This document shows positions 10,621 to 60,233 of a stretch of 64,000 bases of DNA, piece after piece. Under the pieces are notes generated by a model. The model did no database searches and was not told the DNA's origin. It was given only the letters and a program-made list of their open reading frames with translations. Position 1 is the stretch's first letter. Every line of letters starts with the position of its first letter. Source of the stretch: Bdellovibrionales bacterium (GTDB taxonomy: Bacteria > Bdellovibrionota > Bdellovibrionia > Bdellovibrionales > JAGQZY01). The DNA is taken from the NCBI GenBank assembly GCA_031426555.1, contig JANPLN010000030.1, positions 13,125-77,124 of the forward strand, written 5' to 3'. The position numbers and the translations under genes were made by a program.

Positions 10621-10668
10621 GAGATGGTGATGCGTTTTTGGTTCCATTTCCTTCTTTGATTTCTGGGG

Positions 10669-10710
10669 CCCTCTCTTTTTAAGACGCGTCCATCCCTGGA
10701 CTCGCTTGCA
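10669..10710 (+). repeat. Armless (solo) copy of the giant-hairpin core motif
   Basis: CCTCTCTTTTTAAGACGCGTCCATCCCTGGACTCGCTTGCA aligns with 35477-35516 of hairpin D (CCTCCCTTTTAAGACGCGCCCATCCATGGACTCAGTTGCC). No complementary right arm was found. Confidence 0.7.
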
Positions 10711-10744
10711 AATCGACGATGTATACTAGGCAATTGATACAAAT

Positions 10745-12120: not shown

Positions 12121-12142
12121 TAGCAAGGGCTCCGTACCTAGA
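12121..12142 (+). repeat. Partial copy of the family-2 hairpin end (copy Z)
   Basis: TAGCAAGGGCTCCGTACCTAG shares GCTCCGTACC with 11073-11082. It shares CCGTACCTAG with the reverse complement of 59942-59951. Confidence 0.5.
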
Positions 12143-12173
12143 TCATCAGAGATCTAAAAGTTAAAATCAATAT

Positions 12174-13094: not shown

Positions 13095-13229
13095 CAAGTT
13101 TCAATGGTTTCTTAAAAAAGGATGGATTAAAAAGGTTTTTAAAAACGAGTTCCGCAGCGAAGCGAGGACTGTCCGAGATTTTTAAAGACCTTTTTAATCC
13201 ATCCTTTTTTAAGAAACCATTGAAACTTG
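13095..13229. repeat. Giant hairpin A: 51-bp stem, 33-nt loop
   Basis: 13095-13145 pairs with 13179-13229 (position sum 26324), with a single G-T at 13137/13187. Loop is CGAGTTCCGCAGCGAAGCGAGGACTGTCCGAGA. It ends 3 nt from the ychF stop codon. Confidence 0.95.
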
Positions 13230-20409: not shown

Positions 20410-20451
20410 AAAGGTGCAGATGGTCGACTGGCACATGACGACATGCCCAAC

Positions 20452-20616
20452 TTTACAGCACTTTAAGTTTCTGAATTCTTCCAAAAACTCAAATTGTAAG
20501 GAAAAAGACCTCTCGCCAACAGGATGTTGGATCTGCGAGTTGAGCCCACGACGGGCGCGTCTTTTTTCTTACAATTTGAGTTTTTGTAAGAATTCAGAAA
20601 CTTAAAGTGCTGTAAA
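20452..20616. repeat. Giant hairpin B: 58-bp stem, 49-nt loop
   Basis: 20452-20509 pairs with 20559-20616 (position sum 41068), with one mismatch (20481/20587) and one G-T (20501/20567). The right arm covers the last 5 codons and the stop of the gspN-like gene. The loop contains the core motif on the minus strand. Confidence 0.95.
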
Positions 20617-21591
20617 ATTAGGCATTGGGTCGCTAAATCCGTTCGCCTGGACGCGAAATGCGTAGCGCAGGCCTTCGCTGGTGGTTGTACTGTATTTGCC
20701 GAGATATCCTTGAATGGCATCAGCGGCACTGCCGAGCTTGGCTTGCATGGATTTTTTTAAATTTAAATCCACAGCCAAGCTGTAGAAGCCAACGGTGGGA
20801 GTTCCTCCGGGGAATACACGGATGTCCATTTCACCGGAAATTTTTAAAATCATCTCGTCAGAGCCACTGCCGAGCTGAGTCTCTTTGAGCAAAAGCTTTC
20901 CATTCTTTAACGTGCCTTTGAGAACGACTTTTTGAAAACTCATGGCGGGAAGAGCCATGGGGCCAAAACCCGTTGCGATTTCGAACTGCGGAATGATCAA
21001 TTTTGCCAGGCTCATTTCAATCACGCCCTCGGGCTGGGTTTTCATCGATGGATCCAAATCCATCTTCGCGGTCAGTTGCCCGAGCGCAGACGGGGATACC
21101 GGCCAGTTGGGGCCCAAACTTTTTGCGAGAATTTTAACATCAAAATCAGAGTAGTTCAGATCGAGCTCGATCGCCTGCGGATCTTTGATTTTTGAACTCG
21201 CACTGGTTGAGGCCTCGAGCGTTCCGCCAAAAAGACCTTCAGCATCGATGTTGACGTGGGGCTTTAGAACTTTGGTAAAAGCAAATTGAATACAAGCGAG
21301 CACTGATGGTGCCACCTTCAAGTACTTCACTTCGACCTGCTCGATCATAGGACTTTCCACCAGCGCTTGCTTCATGATGACGGCTGGACGGGGAAAAAAC
21401 GACAGGTCCATGCTCTCAAATTCTAGATAAATAAGGCCACTGGCGTTGGTTTCGGCGACGATCTTTTCGCCAAGCTCAGTCAGTGGAAAAAACACCACGG
21501 AAAAAACCAAACAGCACAACAAAAACATGACGATCTTCATTTTGTGAAACAAAAAAATCGTCTTTATAAAATCAATCACTGTTCGTAGCAT
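20602..21591 (-). CDS. gspN: Type II secretion system protein N-like
   Basis: 329 aa with a single N-terminal TM. It is the last gene of the gsp operon, directly after gspM. Assignment is by position and topology only. Confidence 0.5.
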   Translation of the reverse strand: MLRTVIDFIKTIFLFHKMKIVMFLLCCLVFSVVFFPLTELGEKIVAETNASGLIYLEFESMDLSFFPRPAVIMKQALVESPMIEQVEVKYLKVAPSVLACIQFAFTKVLKPHVNIDAEGLFGGTLEASTSASSKIKDPQAIELDLNYSDFDVKILAKSLGPNWPVSPSALGQLTAKMDLDPSMKTQPEGVIEMSLAKLIIPQFEIATGFGPMALPAMSFQKVVLKGTLKNGKLLLKETQLGSGSDEMILKISGEMDIRVFPGGTPTVGFYSLAVDLNLKKSMQAKLGSAADAIQGYLGKYSTTTSEGLRYAFRVQANGFSDPMPNFTAL

Positions 21592-33272: not shown

Positions 33273-33431
33273 GGGTGTATCCTCAATTTGGCAAGTCCAT
33301 AGAACGAATGATTTCGAGCTGACTCTTCGTTACTTCTCCTCACGTTAGCGTTTCACTACCGTTTCGTCGTCGCGCCTCGATTCAGCTCGAAATCATTCGT
33401 TCTATGGACTTGCCAAATTAAGGATACACCC
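33273..33431. repeat. Giant hairpin C: 50-bp stem, 59-nt loop
   Basis: 33273-33322 pairs with 33382-33431 (position sum 66704), with one mismatch (33284/33420). It begins 26 nt upstream of the gspD ATG, in the gspD/gspC divergent intergenic region. Confidence 0.95.
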
Positions 33432-34748: not shown

Positions 34749-35438
34749 ATGGGGATGAGCACTGTATTAATGTTTACAGGTCGCAGTGGGGTAGATCAGT
34801 TAGAGTTTCGTCAGCAGTTGTTGCGGGTTCCAGAAGTGTCGATCACTCTGAAAACGGCGCAAGCAATTCTCGAAGCCAGCCAGCACAAAGAAGCAAAAGA
34901 GCTTATGAGCTTGGCGCACTACGAAACAAACGAATATTTATCTGCCGGTCTTTGGCGAGATTTCTTAGCGCAATTGATGCAAATCGGTCTTTATCGTCGT
35001 TACGAAAAATTATCAGCCCGACCACAATATATAATCGGCGACTCTGGCGAATGCTCAGCTTCAGCTGTGTGTTTAGGAGCCATGACTCTCGAAGAGTACG
35101 TGGGGCGCTTTTTGGAGCAGCTCGAAAAACGAAACGCCGAAGAACAATCCAAGGAATTTTTAGTTGGTCACCGTTTAGAAAGTGCAAAAATTTACGAGCG
35201 CACGTTTGAAGGCTACGTCGTTAAATCCGAAGGCAAAGATCTCTGGAGTTTGTTTGATGATCTTCGCAAAGATCATTTGATCGACCAGATAGTCACCCTG
35301 GGCACAGCACCAAGTAACAACTGGCACATCGAGCAGGATCTCGGCATGGTGGAATCGGTTGTGATGGATCCTTTGCTCAGCTGGATGCTACCTTACTTGC
35401 GTTCTAGCACTGTGCCGCTGAATGTGGCTTACGGATAG
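34749..35438 (+). CDS. Hypothetical protein with remote resemblance to the N-terminal half of malonyl-CoA:ACP transacylase (FabD/AT fold)
   Basis: By eye: VLMFTGRSGVDQ matches FabD FVFPGQGSQ, and YIIGDSGECSASAVCLGAMTLEEYV matches FabD MAGHSLGEYSALVCAGVIDFADAV. It is only 229 aa and the GHSxG nucleophile elbow is altered (GDSGE). Confidence 0.3.
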   Translation: MGMSTVLMFTGRSGVDQLEFRQQLLRVPEVSITLKTAQAILEASQHKEAKELMSLAHYETNEYLSAGLWRDFLAQLMQIGLYRRYEKLSARPQYIIGDSGECSASAVCLGAMTLEEYVGRFLEQLEKRNAEEQSKEFLVGHRLESAKIYERTFEGYVVKSEGKDLWSLFDDLRKDHLIDQIVTLGTAPSNNWHIEQDLGMVESVVMDPLLSWMLPYLRSSTVPLNVAYG

Positions 35439-35444
35439 ACTGCG

Positions 35445-35581
35445 ATTTTTAACTTTTAGATACAATTTTTTTAGAACCTCCCTTTTAAGACGCGCCCATC
35501 CATGGACTCAGTTGCCCCCGTCCGGGTCGCAAAGGTCTTAAAAGGGAGGTTCTAAAAAAATTGTATCTAAAAGTTAAAAAT
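35445..35581. repeat. Giant hairpin D: perfect 47-bp stem, 43-nt loop, flanked by 7-bp direct repeat
   Basis: 35445-35491 pairs with 35535-35581 (position sum 71026) with no mismatch. The loop carries AAGACGCGCCCATCCATGGACTCAG. GACTGCG occurs at 35438-35444 and again at 35582-35588. Confidence 0.95.
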
Positions 35582-35725
35582 GACTGCGTTTGCTTAGCAA
35601 ACTTAGACTACTGCCGAAGCGGAAGTACTTGCGCGTTGGAAATTATTTCGAATCTTCCAATTCTGCCAAGAGACTTCATGGAAGTTCCAAATGTCCAATG
35701 ACTCACGTCCACGAATGTATCCTAA

Positions 35726-36844
35726 TTATAGATGCACAAAATTAAAATCAGGGGCTGTCGACATCGGGTTTGGTTTTAAAAACGATGGCAGATCTTCTTC
35801 GGGGGCCAGGACCGAGTAGAAGCCGTAGGGCACTTTGGTGGAAAGAAACGTCAATGGGGCGCGGGTGGTGTAGTCGCCAAAATAATTGGTGTGGGCGAGG
35901 AGTTCGCCGCGAGCGGATTCTTCGTAGGCTTGGCACAACAACGAGTAAAACACTTCGTGGTTATCGGCTGCACAGTGAGTTAAAAAACTCAGCGAAAAAG
36001 TTTGATCCACAGCAGGCAACGGCTGCGAAAAGCCTAGCAGCGATGAAAGTTTGCTGGATTGATAAAGCAGTAAGCCTTCGGAGTGGTATTTTTTGGCGAT
36101 GACTTGTTGAGTGCTGCCACTATTCCAGGGAGCCACACAACCCACAATTTGTTCTTTTGAATTTCGCGCAATTAAAAAATTGTTTAAACTGAAGTCGGGC
36201 CAGGTTTTAAATTTTTGCTCCAATTGCTCGGGAGTGATATTAAAGTACAGCCGACTGCCGATCTTTTTTTGCATCATGTAGTTGCACAGCTCTTCCATAT
36301 CTTTTGGCAGAGCGTGACGAATGCGAATGGTGGGCATGGGGGCGGGCGACCACGGCCAGCGACCCAAAAAATAAATCATATTCACTTTGCGATAAAGATA
36401 GTAGTGCGGTAGTTGGCGACGAATTTTTCGCGGGCGTAAAAGCGCATTGTAAGCCTGGTTTTCAAACTGCTCGATGGCGGTAAAAACATAGCGACAGTTT
36501 TTTTCGGCAATTTTTTGATACAGATACGGAACAAAATGTTGAGCCCATTGGAGAACGGCAATCCGTTGGGGAGCAATTCGTAGATCACACAGATAGCCCA
36601 CAGTTTGCTCTTGGCGATTGAAGTAAGCGCGCTGAAAGCAGATGGTGGCTGCGCCAAGAAGAGTTTCGCTGTCGTCCATCAGTAGAACAGTGGTGAAGTC
36701 GTCGCTGAAGGTGCGATAGTGATTAAAAAAATTCCCCACGCGGTGAATAGAAAAATCAACGTGTCCATGGACGATCTGTTCTTCGTAAAATCTTTGCAGG
36801 AGAAGGGAGTGCTTCTCTTCGGCCTCGACCAGCTTGAGTTGCAT
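35726..36844 (-). CDS. Hypothetical protein, possibly tandem GNAT-like acyltransferase fold
   Basis: 372 aa. Two halves each show beta-alpha patterns reminiscent of GNAT/FemX-like folds (LLGAATICFQRAYFNRQEQTVGYLCDLRI... and IVGCVAPWNSGSTQQVIAKKY...). No catalytic motif was confidently identified. Confidence 0.3.
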   Translation of the reverse strand: MQLKLVEAEEKHSLLLQRFYEEQIVHGHVDFSIHRVGNFFNHYRTFSDDFTTVLLMDDSETLLGAATICFQRAYFNRQEQTVGYLCDLRIAPQRIAVLQWAQHFVPYLYQKIAEKNCRYVFTAIEQFENQAYNALLRPRKIRRQLPHYYLYRKVNMIYFLGRWPWSPAPMPTIRIRHALPKDMEELCNYMMQKKIGSRLYFNITPEQLEQKFKTWPDFSLNNFLIARNSKEQIVGCVAPWNSGSTQQVIAKKYHSEGLLLYQSSKLSSLLGFSQPLPAVDQTFSLSFLTHCAADNHEVFYSLLCQAYEESARGELLAHTNYFGDYTTRAPLTFLSTKVPYGFYSVLAPEEDLPSFLKPNPMSTAPDFNFVHL

Positions 36845-58075: not shown

Positions 58076-59055
58076 TGTGGGAAGCATCGGCACCTGCAAA
58101 TATCGCCCTTATTAAATATATGGGGAAGCGCAGTTTCAGCTCTGCAAACACCACTCAAGCGAACGTCAACGTCGCGATAAATCCTTCGGTCTCTTGGACC
58201 TTGGATCACCTGCGAAGTTTTGTGCAGCTAGAGCTTGTTGACGCCAACGAAGGCCAGAGCGACCTGTGGCAGCCACATCCCCAATGGGCGTTAGAAATGA
58301 GTGAAGTGGGGCTACAGAAATATCTTGCCCATCTTCAACGCGTAAAAAAAATGTTTTCCGCCGAAAACTATTTTTTTAAAGTGCGATCGGGAAATAATTT
58401 TCCAGCAGATTGCGGAATCGCCAGCTCGGCTTCGAGTTTTGCAGCGTTGACTCTCGTGTCGTCGCAAGCTCTGGCGCACTTGACCAAAAAGCCTCTTCCA
58501 GCGATGGAGACCCTTGCAGATTTGAGTCGACAAGGCTCCGGCTCGTCGTGCCGCTCGTTTTTTTCGGGTTTTGTAGTTTGGGAAGAGCAGGGCGTGCGAA
58601 AACTGCCAACAACTACTACGCTTCACCACCAAGTCGTCATCGTGAGTGGCGATAAAAAACAAGTGTCTTCGTCACAGGCCCATCAACGAGTTCAGTCGAG
58701 TTTACTAATGAAGCAACGGGAAGAGCGTGTTCAGGTGCGTTTTACGTCGCTGTGTGAGCAACTACTCAGTGGCACCCCCGATTGGAAAAAGTTATATGAA
58801 CTCACGTGGTCGGAATTTTGGGACATGCATGCTCTCTTCGAAACCAGTGACCCCTCCTTTGGCTATATGACATCAAAATCGCTGGAGGTTCTGAATATCG
58901 TGCGCGAATATTGGCTGCAAAAACAGGACGGCCCTCTCGTGACCATGGACGCAGGCCCCAATGTGCATTTGTTATGGCGACACGATCAAAGGACCATGGC
59001 CCAGGAGTTTGCAAAAGCAAACCCGCAATGGAAGTGGATTGAGGACGCCCGATGA
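58060..59055 (+). CDS. mvaD: Diphosphomevalonate decarboxylase
   Basis: ASAPANIALIKYMGKR, GIASSASSFAALT and GSGSSCRS are MVD signatures. Confidence 0.88.
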   Translation: MAVVVMWEASAPANIALIKYMGKRSFSSANTTQANVNVAINPSVSWTLDHLRSFVQLELVDANEGQSDLWQPHPQWALEMSEVGLQKYLAHLQRVKKMFSAENYFFKVRSGNNFPADCGIASSASSFAALTLVSSQALAHLTKKPLPAMETLADLSRQGSGSSCRSFFSGFVVWEEQGVRKLPTTTTLHHQVVIVSGDKKQVSSSQAHQRVQSSLLMKQREERVQVRFTSLCEQLLSGTPDWKKLYELTWSEFWDMHALFETSDPSFGYMTSKSLEVLNIVREYWLQKQDGPLVTMDAGPNVHLLWRHDQRTMAQEFAKANPQWKWIEDAR

Positions 59056-59945
59056 GGTCGCCAATTGAGGAAACCATGAGTTTTAAGCATCGAGTTTTTG
59101 GCAAATGGATTTTAGCCGGCGAGCACGCTGTGCTTCGCGGTCACACGGCCATGGTGTTTCCAGTGACGTCTTGTTACTTCGAAATTGAATACAAACCATC
59201 TTCCAATAAAATCAATCTCACTTGTGATTCAGATCAGGGTGAGCAAATGAAAATGGTTTTTATGGGTTTGCTGAACAAAGCACTTTCGGATCTCGGCAAA
59301 GAAACCACGGAGCTCACTGGCGAGCTGAGTATTTTCAATCGCATCCCCTTGGTCGGTGGGATGGGCGCGAGTGCCGCTATCTGCGTATCCGTCGTAAAAT
59401 TTTTAAATTATTTAGGATTTGTGGAAGAGGATAAAGTTTTTTCATTCGCCAAGTCCTTGGAAGATTTGTTTCACGGTGAGAGCAGCGGCGTGGATGTGGC
59501 CATTGCACTTCAAGCTCGTCCTTTGCTTTATAAGATTGGCGAATTTATTCCCTTTGATCCCCAGTGGAAACCCTATTTGTATTTATCCCATTGTGGAAAA
59601 CGTGGAGTCACAGCCGATTGCATTCGGCGGGTTAAAAAATTATGGCAAACCAATGAAAGTTTGGGCCAGATGATTGATCTCGATATGCAACGCAGCTTTG
59701 AACTGGCGCAAAAAGCCCTGAGCAGACCCGATTCGATGCATGAACTCCAGCAATCCATTTTGCTCGCGCGATCCTGTTTTGAGCGCTGGGGCTTGGTGAG
59801 TGTGGAGTTGAGCGAGCACATGAACGAGCTTCACAAGCTGGGCGCCATTGCCACCAAGCCCACCGGCAGCGGCGATGGCGGTTTTGTTTTAAGCCTCTGG
59901 GACCAGAAGCCCACTACCACATCGATCGACCTCCTCGAGTGCTAG
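59052..59945 (+). CDS. mvk: Mevalonate kinase
   Basis: GKWILAGEHAVLRG (MK N-terminal motif), GHMP motif PLVGGMGASAAICVS, and C-terminal KPTGSGDGG. Confidence 0.8.
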   Translation: MRSPIEETMSFKHRVFGKWILAGEHAVLRGHTAMVFPVTSCYFEIEYKPSSNKINLTCDSDQGEQMKMVFMGLLNKALSDLGKETTELTGELSIFNRIPLVGGMGASAAICVSVVKFLNYLGFVEEDKVFSFAKSLEDLFHGESSGVDVAIALQARPLLYKIGEFIPFDPQWKPYLYLSHCGKRGVTADCIRRVKKLWQTNESLGQMIDLDMQRSFELAQKALSRPDSMHELQQSILLARSCFERWGLVSVELSEHMNELHKLGAIATKPTGSGDGGFVLSLWDQKPTTTSIDLLEC

Positions 59946-59951
59946 GTACGG

Positions 59952-60168
59952 ACACACTTTTTGGGACTCATTGCATAAAATTTCTTGCACGAGAATTCCT
60001 TAAACCTTTTATTTATTTCGCAGCACTCGCGGACACGGGCTCGTCTTCGTAGGTCGTCATTGCATGACGCCCCACGGATACGCCCCGTTCGCACGTGAGC
60101 TCGTAAATAAAAAGTTTAAGGAATTCTCGTGCAAGAAATTTTATGCAATGAGTCCCAAAAAGTGTGTG
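59952..60168. repeat. Giant hairpin E: 65-bp stem, 86-nt loop, inserted in a family-2 hairpin
   Basis: 59952-60016 pairs with 60103-60167 (position sum 120119), with one mismatch (60006/60113) and a terminal G-T. Flanked by GGTACGG (59945-59951) and GGCACGG (60169-60175). The loop carries the core motif on the minus strand. Confidence 0.95.
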
Positions 60169-60233
60169 GGCACGGAGCGAGCTCTCCTCGCGAACGAGCG
60201 CCGAAAGCGCTTTTGTCCATTGCCTTACCTAGC
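60169..60233. terminator. Family-2 terminator-like hairpin, copy Y
   Basis: GGCACGGAGCGAGCT...AGCGCCGAAAGCGCTTTTGTCCATTGCCTTACCTAG aligns with the reverse complement of 11035-11084. The inner AGCGC-CGAAA-GCGCT is followed by TTTT. It lies between the convergent mvk and coiled-coil genes. Confidence 0.6.

Follow-up and report, generated by a model that had tools for sequence, protein, structure and literature searches.

An old copy of a palindromic intergenic repeat family in a Bdellovibrionales genome, and the short direct repeat that brackets it

The window analysed here, a stretch of 64,000 nt from contig JANPLN010000030.1 of a Bdellovibrionales bacterium, contains a long hairpin (hairpin D) just past the stop codon of a gene for a 227-aa protein. 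Its 47-nt stem is perfect and is abutted on both ends by the 7-bp direct repeat GACTGCG, at the coordinates first reported for it (Table 1). The original prediction took this repeat for the mark of a staggered-cut insertion, that is, for a target-site duplication (TSD). D is an old, not a recent, copy of a non-coding palindromic repeat family in a Bdellovibrionales lineage, and the 7-bp repeat is not a signature of that family. The account favoured here, on balance, is that the family has spread by template switching, the repeat at D being most likely a by-product of one insertion event. The insertion claim is therefore upheld in part: D is a discrete inserted element, absent from three related genomes, but a staggered cut with a TSD does not hold for the element class as a whole.

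The window has five long hairpins (A to E), each combining AT-rich arms with a GC-rich loop, and their arms are mutually unrelated. The inner stem and loop of D resemble the reverse complement of those of B (z ~6.7), and also a remnant at 10635-10712. The statement that the termini of D match no other copy thus holds for the whole arms, but not for the inner stem and loop core, which are present in B (on the minus strand) and in the truncated copy, at 10681. Members of the family have a conserved core of ~57 nt with two small hairpins, an inner stem CYTTTTAAGAC/GTCTTAAAARG, and variable, AT-rich arms of 36-78 nt, which in D form 47-nt perfect terminal inverted repeats. In the apical module of D, hairpin 1 is GYCCAT-CC-ATGGRC and hairpin 2, in the D type, is TTGC...GCAA; the asymmetric loop core sets the orientation of the element. 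Folded as RNA, D has a predicted energy of -79.5 kcal/mol (z = -13.7 vs shuffles). Elements usually start 0-12 nt past a stop codon.

A scan of one genome per species with the motif AAGACGCGYCCRTC-N1-2-TGGRCTC returned 23 matches: 19 in three Bdellovibrionales metagenome-assembled genomes (MAGs), all from stream or glacier metagenomes, and 4 chance matches in high-GC genomes. An nhmmer profile of the core recovers 26 copies in the window and the fetched loci, including D (E = 1.4e-13), B and the truncated copy. In an alignment of 23 copies, 94% of the cells in the three apical helices are paired and both sides have changed in 10 of the 22 pairs, a value as high being reached in none of 500 column shuffles. 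Subfamilies of arms are defined by their outer ends; the E type, which ends in (T/A)AGGTACGGACACACTTTTTGGGACTCATTGCATAAA, has its outer arms at ~12 loci, and the core and inner stem are likewise multi-copy. No second copy with D-type termini (ATTTTTAACTTTTAG) was found in the three MAGs or the compared loci, and, as far as sampled, these termini are confined to this locus, apart from a stretch at 12152-12166 that matches 15/15 nt of the outer arm of D. That stretch belongs to an intergenic region (12130-12168) which contains CTCCGTACCTAG, resembling an E-type terminus, and ATCTAAAAGTTAAAA, the 15/15 match to the outer end of the right arm of D; both may be remnants of decayed elements.

Orthologous loci were taken from fetched contigs that encode close homologs of the upstream 227-aa gene, and contigs carry the labels L001-L047. 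The elements are modular: at the orthologous E/L008 locus the same outer arms enclose different apices, while at the D/L029 locus the same core has different arms. At two contig ends of one MAG (L010 13-190 and L021 3749-3879) the arms are identical and the asymmetric core is opposite relative to a nested insert, which represents either two loci or a loop inversion (flip) polymorphism. A search of the literature found no description of palindromic repeats, or of miniature inverted-repeat transposable elements (MITEs), of such kind in Bdellovibrio-like bacteria, and the family appears to be undescribed so far. It falls within the known class of palindromic intergenic repeats and stands apart there by three traits, namely a conserved apex with variable, co-evolving arms, insertion without a TSD, and extension of the palindrome into the ends of host genes. 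Its spread continues in a group of uncultured Bdellovibrio-like bacteria.

Table 1. Positions of hairpin D, its parts and surroundings, and the other hairpins of the window
Feature	Position	Strand	Description
Upstream gene, 227 aa	34755-35438	+	TAG stop at 35436-35438; D begins 6 nt past stop
Left direct-repeat copy GACTGCG	35438-35444	.	Overlaps final base of the TAG of the upstream gene; abuts left arm
Hairpin D left arm	35445-35491	+	47 nt, 23% GC; 100% complementary to right arm
Left-arm middle block (arm positions 16-33)	35460-35477	+	Unconstrained; mirrored at 35549-35566 in right arm
Family apical module in D	35481-35546	+	Inner stem CCTTTTAAGAC/GTCTTAAAAGG around GC-rich two-hairpin core
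Hairpin D loop between perfect arms	35492-35534	+	43 nt, 67% GC; asymmetric core
Hairpin D right arm	35535-35581	+	47 nt; perfect complement of left arm
Right direct-repeat copy GACTGCG	35582-35588	.	Abuts right arm
Small hairpin GTTTGC-TTA-GCAAAC	35588-35602	+	Outside element; not conserved
Truncated family member	10635-10712	+	Left arm and 5' half of core; right half deleted; ortholog L007 complete
Hairpin A	13095-13229	.	51-nt AT-rich arms, 33-nt GC-rich loop; D-like architecture; family homology not shown
Hairpin B	20443-20625	-	Family core; recent insertion, no TSD
Hairpin C	33273-33431	.	D-like architecture, unrelated apex; recent 159-nt insertion, no TSD
Hairpin E	59942-60232	.	Outer arms CTAGGTACGGACACACTTTTTGGGACTCATTGCATAAA shared with ~12 core-bearing MAG copies; different apex here

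The perfect stem of D is no sign of recency, because the element predates a clade whose flanking gene has diverged by 10-13% at the nucleotide level. Every intact ortholog (L026, L039-L042 and L044) has the hairpin at the same site with both copies of GACTGCG, and the context of the right copy, GACTGCGTTT, is kept in all of them. The intact carriers form a clade (bootstrap 199/200), and the data fit a single gain of D, just past the stop of the 227-aa gene, in the ancestor of this clade of related genomes. The hairpin is also present in L013, L045 and L046, where a later GC-rich mini-insert of 34 nt (GTCCGTCATCCTGAGTGGCGCAGCGAAGGATCTC; L013 1954-1987) lies inside the left GACTGCG copy, in one sub-lineage. 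The loop of hairpin A (13146-13178) has a motif, CGCAGCGAAGCGAGGA, which resembles this mini-insert, and the two may belong to a second class of tiny GC-rich insertions.

Three relatives, L028, L047 and L030, have no hairpin D; the junctions of all three are rearranged and none gives a clean empty site. L028, whose protein is 89% identical, reads TAGACTGTAATT, with a 9-nt spacer containing GACTG once and then directly the stop of the convergent gene, so that the whole spacer of 287 nt is missing; in L047 (93% identical) the gene ends with a TGA that overlaps the start of an acetyltransferase gene; and L030 (80% identical) has a different neighbour gene. L029 retains a decayed copy with a D-type core, another left arm, a deleted right arm and no GACTGCG. 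In the tree, L028, L029 and L047 take no firm order with respect to the clade of D carriers. The junction 3' of the 227-aa gene is a hot spot of gene flux (L026, L039-L044, L047, L028, L029, L030), and is occupied, depending on the genome, by an acetyltransferase gene, an acetyltransferase gene with a DUF222/HNH endonuclease gene, a 132-aa open reading frame (ORF), a non-coding spacer of 137 nt (window, L013), or 9 nt only (L028). Contig L043, from a public metagenome, is an assembly artefact: it ends (~2040-2061) in the Illumina adapter AGATCGGAAGAGCGTCGTGTAGGGAAAGAG right after the hairpin, whose arms combine two strain variants.

Two further elements of the original prediction concern the site before insertion. 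The small hairpin downstream of D had been seen as part of an intact pre-insertion gene end, but is no evidence of one: it has no T-run and is not conserved in the orthologs, which in its place read GTTTGCTCATCAACG (L013), GTTTACTGTTAACCC (L026) and GTTTGCTTGGTAACA (L044). The predicted empty site (TAGACTGCGTTTGC...) was not found in a scan of JGI metagenome contigs for GTNGCNTAYGGNTAGACTGCGTTT, and a scan for the D-type core likewise gave no match; these negatives are weak, the collection being incomplete and evidently missing sample 3300071567. JGI contig L044, which comes from that sample, fits the D-type core pattern, yet the scan of the DNA collection returned nothing; this collection is not a superset of the samples in the protein index.

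The two arms of D have changed together. The arms of the orthologs do not differ in their outer 15 nt or their inner 12 nt, and all differences are confined to arm positions 16-33. The window and L013 differ by ten compensated changes and no uncompensated one, the window and L026 by eight and one, and L013 and L026 by two and one. The ten compensated differences are packed into a block of 18 nt (P ~1e-3 for such clustering). A second locus, compared between L015 and L016b, shows a compensated TT/AA change. Across the family the arms vary among copies and are ~98% complementary within copies, with 18 mismatches in ~900 arm pairs, of which, on the core-sense strand, 6 are of the G.U type, 6 of the A.C type and 6 other. 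The lack of strand bias in these mismatches points to a homogenising process at the DNA level rather than to selection on the RNA of one strand; without an asymmetry between G.U and A.C, RNA-level selection on the arms was rejected.

Polymerase template switching between inverted repeats is known to homogenise arms, to extend arm identity and to invert spacers (PMC8604942, PMC3820800, PMC8794818). Clustered multi-base changes that restore or extend complementarity, by which template switching in quasipalindromes is recognised, are found at both D and B. The flanking gene has a raw synonymous divergence of ~34%, with which the extent of change in the middle block of D (10/18-20) is compatible. 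A special mechanism acting on a hypervariable, 'spacer-like' middle segment was considered and discarded, as the middles of E-type arms still share a recognisable consensus. Comparison of the variable block, the core and the E-type outer arm with viral contigs gave no match, and a phage origin, or a role of the variable block as a phage-matching 'guide', was dropped on this ground.

Hairpins B and C inserted without target duplication, as can be read from filled and empty alleles. C is found only in the lineage of the window (and in a Logan contig from the same sample), where it sits between the secretin and gspC genes, in the region of their divergent promoters. Six relatives (L029, L030, L044, L045, L046, L047) have the empty site GGACTC(AT)TC|TATTAAACC, and the filled site reads GGACTCTC|159 nt|TATTAAACC, with no duplication. 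A further pair, L016a with the element and L015 without it, also lacks a duplication. B is absent from five contigs (L032, L033, L034, L036 and L037) that encode an SSB protein identical to that of the window, the empty allele being ...ATGCCTAATTTTACAGCACTTTAAG-(TC/GC)-[A/G]TCGACC... when genes are read on the plus strand. The outer arm of B, ATGCCTAATTTTACAGCACTTTAAG, is the native 25-nt 3' end (last codons and TAA) of the 329-aa gene at 20602-21591 and is present in all empty alleles. The filled allele has, in order, the native 25 nt, the element proper, an inverted copy of the 25 nt, a short filler and GTCGACC.... The inverted copy covers at least 25 nt with 2 mismatches, and possibly ~30 nt with a 3-nt gap; the palindrome was thus extended into host coding sequence. 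Both mismatches fall at synonymous third-codon positions (CCT/CCC, AAT/AAC).

The 7-bp repeat at D is, as had been claimed, beyond chance. Under an empirical null of 200,000 boundary pairs drawn at random from the window, the probability that a perfect direct repeat of 7 nt or longer flanks a pair is 1.4e-4, or roughly 2e-3 when ~17 tested loci are allowed for. D alone of these loci has one. Flanking duplications at other copies, on which the original prediction had let the staggered cut depend, do not occur: in ~16 further independent copies, the palindrome boundary and its vicinity are free of direct repeats of 5 nt or more. The junctions are heterogeneous, with no repeat at C, an inverted flank copy and filler at B, and the direct repeat at D. 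The window is a housekeeping region, with the operon of the type II secretion system, alternative complex III, the mevalonate pathway and ribosomal proteins, and a transposase, integrase or reverse transcriptase was not found among its 52 ORFs that reach 110 aa or more.

It is on these grounds (junction heterogeneity, no nearby enzyme, co-evolving arms, modular copies and opposite core orientation) that template switching is preferred over a fixed staggered cut. Spread would proceed by copy-choice and fold-back synthesis during replication or repair, probably without a transposase making a fixed staggered cut. Such a process would account for the heterogeneous junctions, for the growth of palindromes into host flanks, and for arms that stay near-perfectly complementary while drifting. 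D would have inserted once past the stop of the 227-aa gene, acquiring GACTGCG through re-use of microhomology or fill-in of a staggered break, and the repeat would have been retained since. A stronger version, which is conceivable and distinctly speculative, holds that the family is a self-propagating 'foldback' repeat that colonises sites with no dedicated enzyme, by copy-choice in replication or repair, its arms being continually rewritten and extended into host DNA and its two-hairpin apex perhaps serving as a fork-stalling or strand-switching module or as a site for a host protein.

Several observations weigh against template switching as the route of spread. An exact 7-bp repeat at both boundaries (P ~1e-4) is precisely what staggered-cut transposition predicts, and template switching covers it only ad hoc. 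At B, a copy from another genome and another locus (L004a) shares GCACTTT(T)AAGTTTCT.GAATT across the supposed junction between host and element; the innermost 10 nt of the 'host-derived' arm may therefore belong to the element, and the insertion may have been homology-guided, although the outer 15 nt of the 25-nt stretch are host-derived in any case. At D, the orthologs have kept outer positions 1-15, the inner stem and both repeat copies, and differ in the middle block and in the spacer downstream. This conservation in place suggests selection, i.e. some function, which would not be expected if the element were only selfish or only a product of mechanism. Finally, the data consist of genome fragments, in which other D-type copies with 7-bp repeats of their own, or a distant transposase, would escape notice.

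The first alternative is that D is a classical MITE, a deletion derivative of a DDE insertion sequence mobilised in trans with a 7-bp staggered cut, GACTGCG being its TSD and the other hairpins belonging to other MITE families or having lost their TSDs. The exact repeat against perfect terminal inverted repeats agrees with this, as do the absence of D from L028, L047 and L030 and the single GACTG in L028; B, C, the L016a element and D are all polymorphic for presence and absence between relatives. D-type outer arms are, moreover, unlike those of all other copies, and a different mobilising enzyme is conceivable. A cut of fixed length should leave a duplication at every copy, however, and the filled and empty pairs at B and C show that elements which share the inner stem and core of D insert without one. 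No second copy of the termini of D turned up in the three MAGs or the compared loci, no clean empty site was found, and there is neither a transposase in the window nor, in ~250 kb of related loci, a pair of solo terminal repeats flanking a gene. The MITE explanation is accordingly considered unlikely.

A less probable explanation still is that D serves the host, either as a hairpin RNA in the 3' untranslated region of the 227-aa gene, with a part in the stability or processing of its mRNA, or as a DNA cruciform bound by a protein, with the GACTGCG copies as part of the unit. The pattern of conservation described above (outer positions 1-15, inner 12 bp, core and both repeat copies kept, a middle of 18-20 bp and the downstream spacer diverging) and the covariation of the core hairpins favour it, as does the position of elements after stop codons. 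At 9/11 fully resolved loci the core points the same way as the gene immediately upstream, but this bias is not significant (9 vs 2, p ~0.07; 11 vs 5 overall), and abutment on stop codons is expected anyway, because 3' intergenic spacers here can be just 9 nt. The sense strand shows no preference for G.U over A.C, leaving RNA-level selection unsupported; L028, L047 and L030 manage without the hairpin; and copies decay by half-deletion (window 10635-10712, L029, L012). No terminator signature and no Rfam family at threshold is found. The last explanation, that the 7-bp repeat is a coincidence or a local slippage unrelated to the arrival of the hairpin, could appeal to D being the sole locus of ~17 with such a repeat and to the several independent rearrangements of its flank, a hot spot of gene flux, but with the chance estimates given above and a repeat that abuts both palindrome ends exactly, it is very improbable.

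Other candidate roles of D were tried and rejected. An intrinsic (Rho-independent) terminator has a short GC-rich stem and then a T-run, whereas D has an AT-rich stem of 47 bp with GACTGCG behind it, and neither D nor its surroundings (35200-35900) has a terminator-like site, the small downstream hairpin also lacking a T-run. If TGGACTCAGTTGC is read as a sigma-54 promoter, the GG-GC spacing is two bases too short against the established consensus. Rfam 15, scanned with the window, the D region and two family loci, gave no match at the gathering score; the models returned, all well under threshold, were those of miRNA precursors, to which long hairpins are generically similar. The upstream 227-aa gene and the other gene that flanks D matched no Pfam or NCBIfam family. 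A link between core orientation and the direction of replication was discarded, as GC skew is uniformly positive across the window and cores face both ways.

Hairpin E carries a nested GC-rich insert of ~54 nt (60168-60221) in its right outer arm, GCACGGAGCGAGCTCT..GCGCCGAAGGCGC.., and the 7-bp repeat CTCCTCG around E is invalid as a flanking duplication, since it lies inside this insert, which is common to several copies. Nested inserts of the E type also occur in L018, L021, L023 and L025, with a solo half-element at L010 6620-6700; shared by copies at different loci, the insert marks a subfamily that multiplied after acquiring it. A stop triplet (TAG, TAA or TGA) starts both arms of E-type elements, co-varies between the arms and overlaps the stop codons of the flanking genes. 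Such termini are seen in the window (59942-59945 and 60230-60232) and in L005, L008, L011, L014, L018 and L025, the TAG at 59943-59945 being the stop codon of the gene at 59052-59945. In L008 (330-400) a tandem 11-nt unit, GCTACTGCCTA, begins exactly at the right terminus of the element, where the orthologous place in the window has a single GCTACG.

Complete elements are also found in pairs of opposite orientation within one intergenic region (L004 6358-6695 and L016 1388-1714), and in L004 each is co-oriented with the adjacent convergent gene. Decay by loss of one half is seen in the window (10635-10712), in L012 and in L029 (3560-3680), the latter two being without right arms. Relative to the complete ortholog (L007 1979-2130), the right half of the window copy was deleted at a CAAA(A) microhomology. 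Assemblies tend to break at the elements: Logan contigs L001 and L002 stop ~30 nt into each arm of D, and MAG contigs L003, L010, L019, L020 and L021 end inside an element. The mismatched arms of L019 and L011 may be assembly chimeras between copies.

There is only a partial understanding of how small palindromic repeats (REP, ERIC, Correia-like) propagate and are maintained in bacterial genomes. In the lineage described here, the recent insertions B and C can be set against clean empty sites in close relatives, and an old copy, D, is traceable across a clade. Taken together, B, C and D indicate that a perfect stem need not mean a recent event, that arms co-evolve as a unit, and that the 3' end of an adjacent gene can become part of a palindrome. 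The breaks in MAG contigs and Logan assemblies also make the elements relevant to annotation and assembly. If enzyme-free foldback spread were true, template switching would here be at work in nature as a mechanism of transposition besides being a mutational process, and palindromes would be seen to recruit gene ends, stop codons included, into their arms.

Among known systems, template-switch mutagenesis at quasipalindromes (the Ripley model; PMC8604942, PMC3820800, PMC8794818) resembles the present family in its simultaneous changes of two arms, in the arm extension at B and in the possible loop flip between L010 and L021. It is known as a process on existing inverted repeats; the colonisation of new loci has not been described for it, and is the step that we infer here. 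Integron attC sites, imperfect palindromes of 57-141 bp at gene 3' ends, likewise conserve structure more than sequence. They have conserved outer R''/R' boxes (RYYYAAC ... GTTRRRY) and extrahelical bases, while the stem of D is perfect; the ends of D, ATTTTTAAC ... GTTAAAAAT, are a near miss that fails both consensus boxes, and with no integrase domain in the window this assignment was rejected.

IS200/IS605-derived palindrome-associated elements (PATEs) and the REP/RAYT system share with the family insertion without a TSD (as at B and C), DNA hairpins, a non-autonomous nature and high copy number. Their hairpins, in contrast, are subterminal and imperfect and their target is a fixed tetra- or pentanucleotide, for which the junctions of A, B, C, D and L016a hold no common motif. 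A derivative of the IS200/IS605 type was rejected on this basis, the left flanks (..CTTTAAG, ..GGACTCTC, ..GACTGCG, ..GGTAACG, ..GCTTCAT) sharing no motif, and genes for TnpA, TnpB or RAYT are not found in the window. The ERIC/IRU and Neisseria Correia (CREE/NEMIS) elements are palindromic intergenic repeats of 100-160 bp in proteobacteria, in which terminal repeats are common to all copies and a TA target is duplicated. The family of D is like these in being small, non-coding, high-copy and intergenic, in folding into long hairpins once transcribed, in lying near gene ends, and in its presence/absence polymorphism. It differs from them in that the insertions of B and C leave no duplication and that it has no similarity to any Rfam model, and above all in its design, with a conserved apex carried on arms that differ between copies and yet are near-perfect over 36-78 nt.

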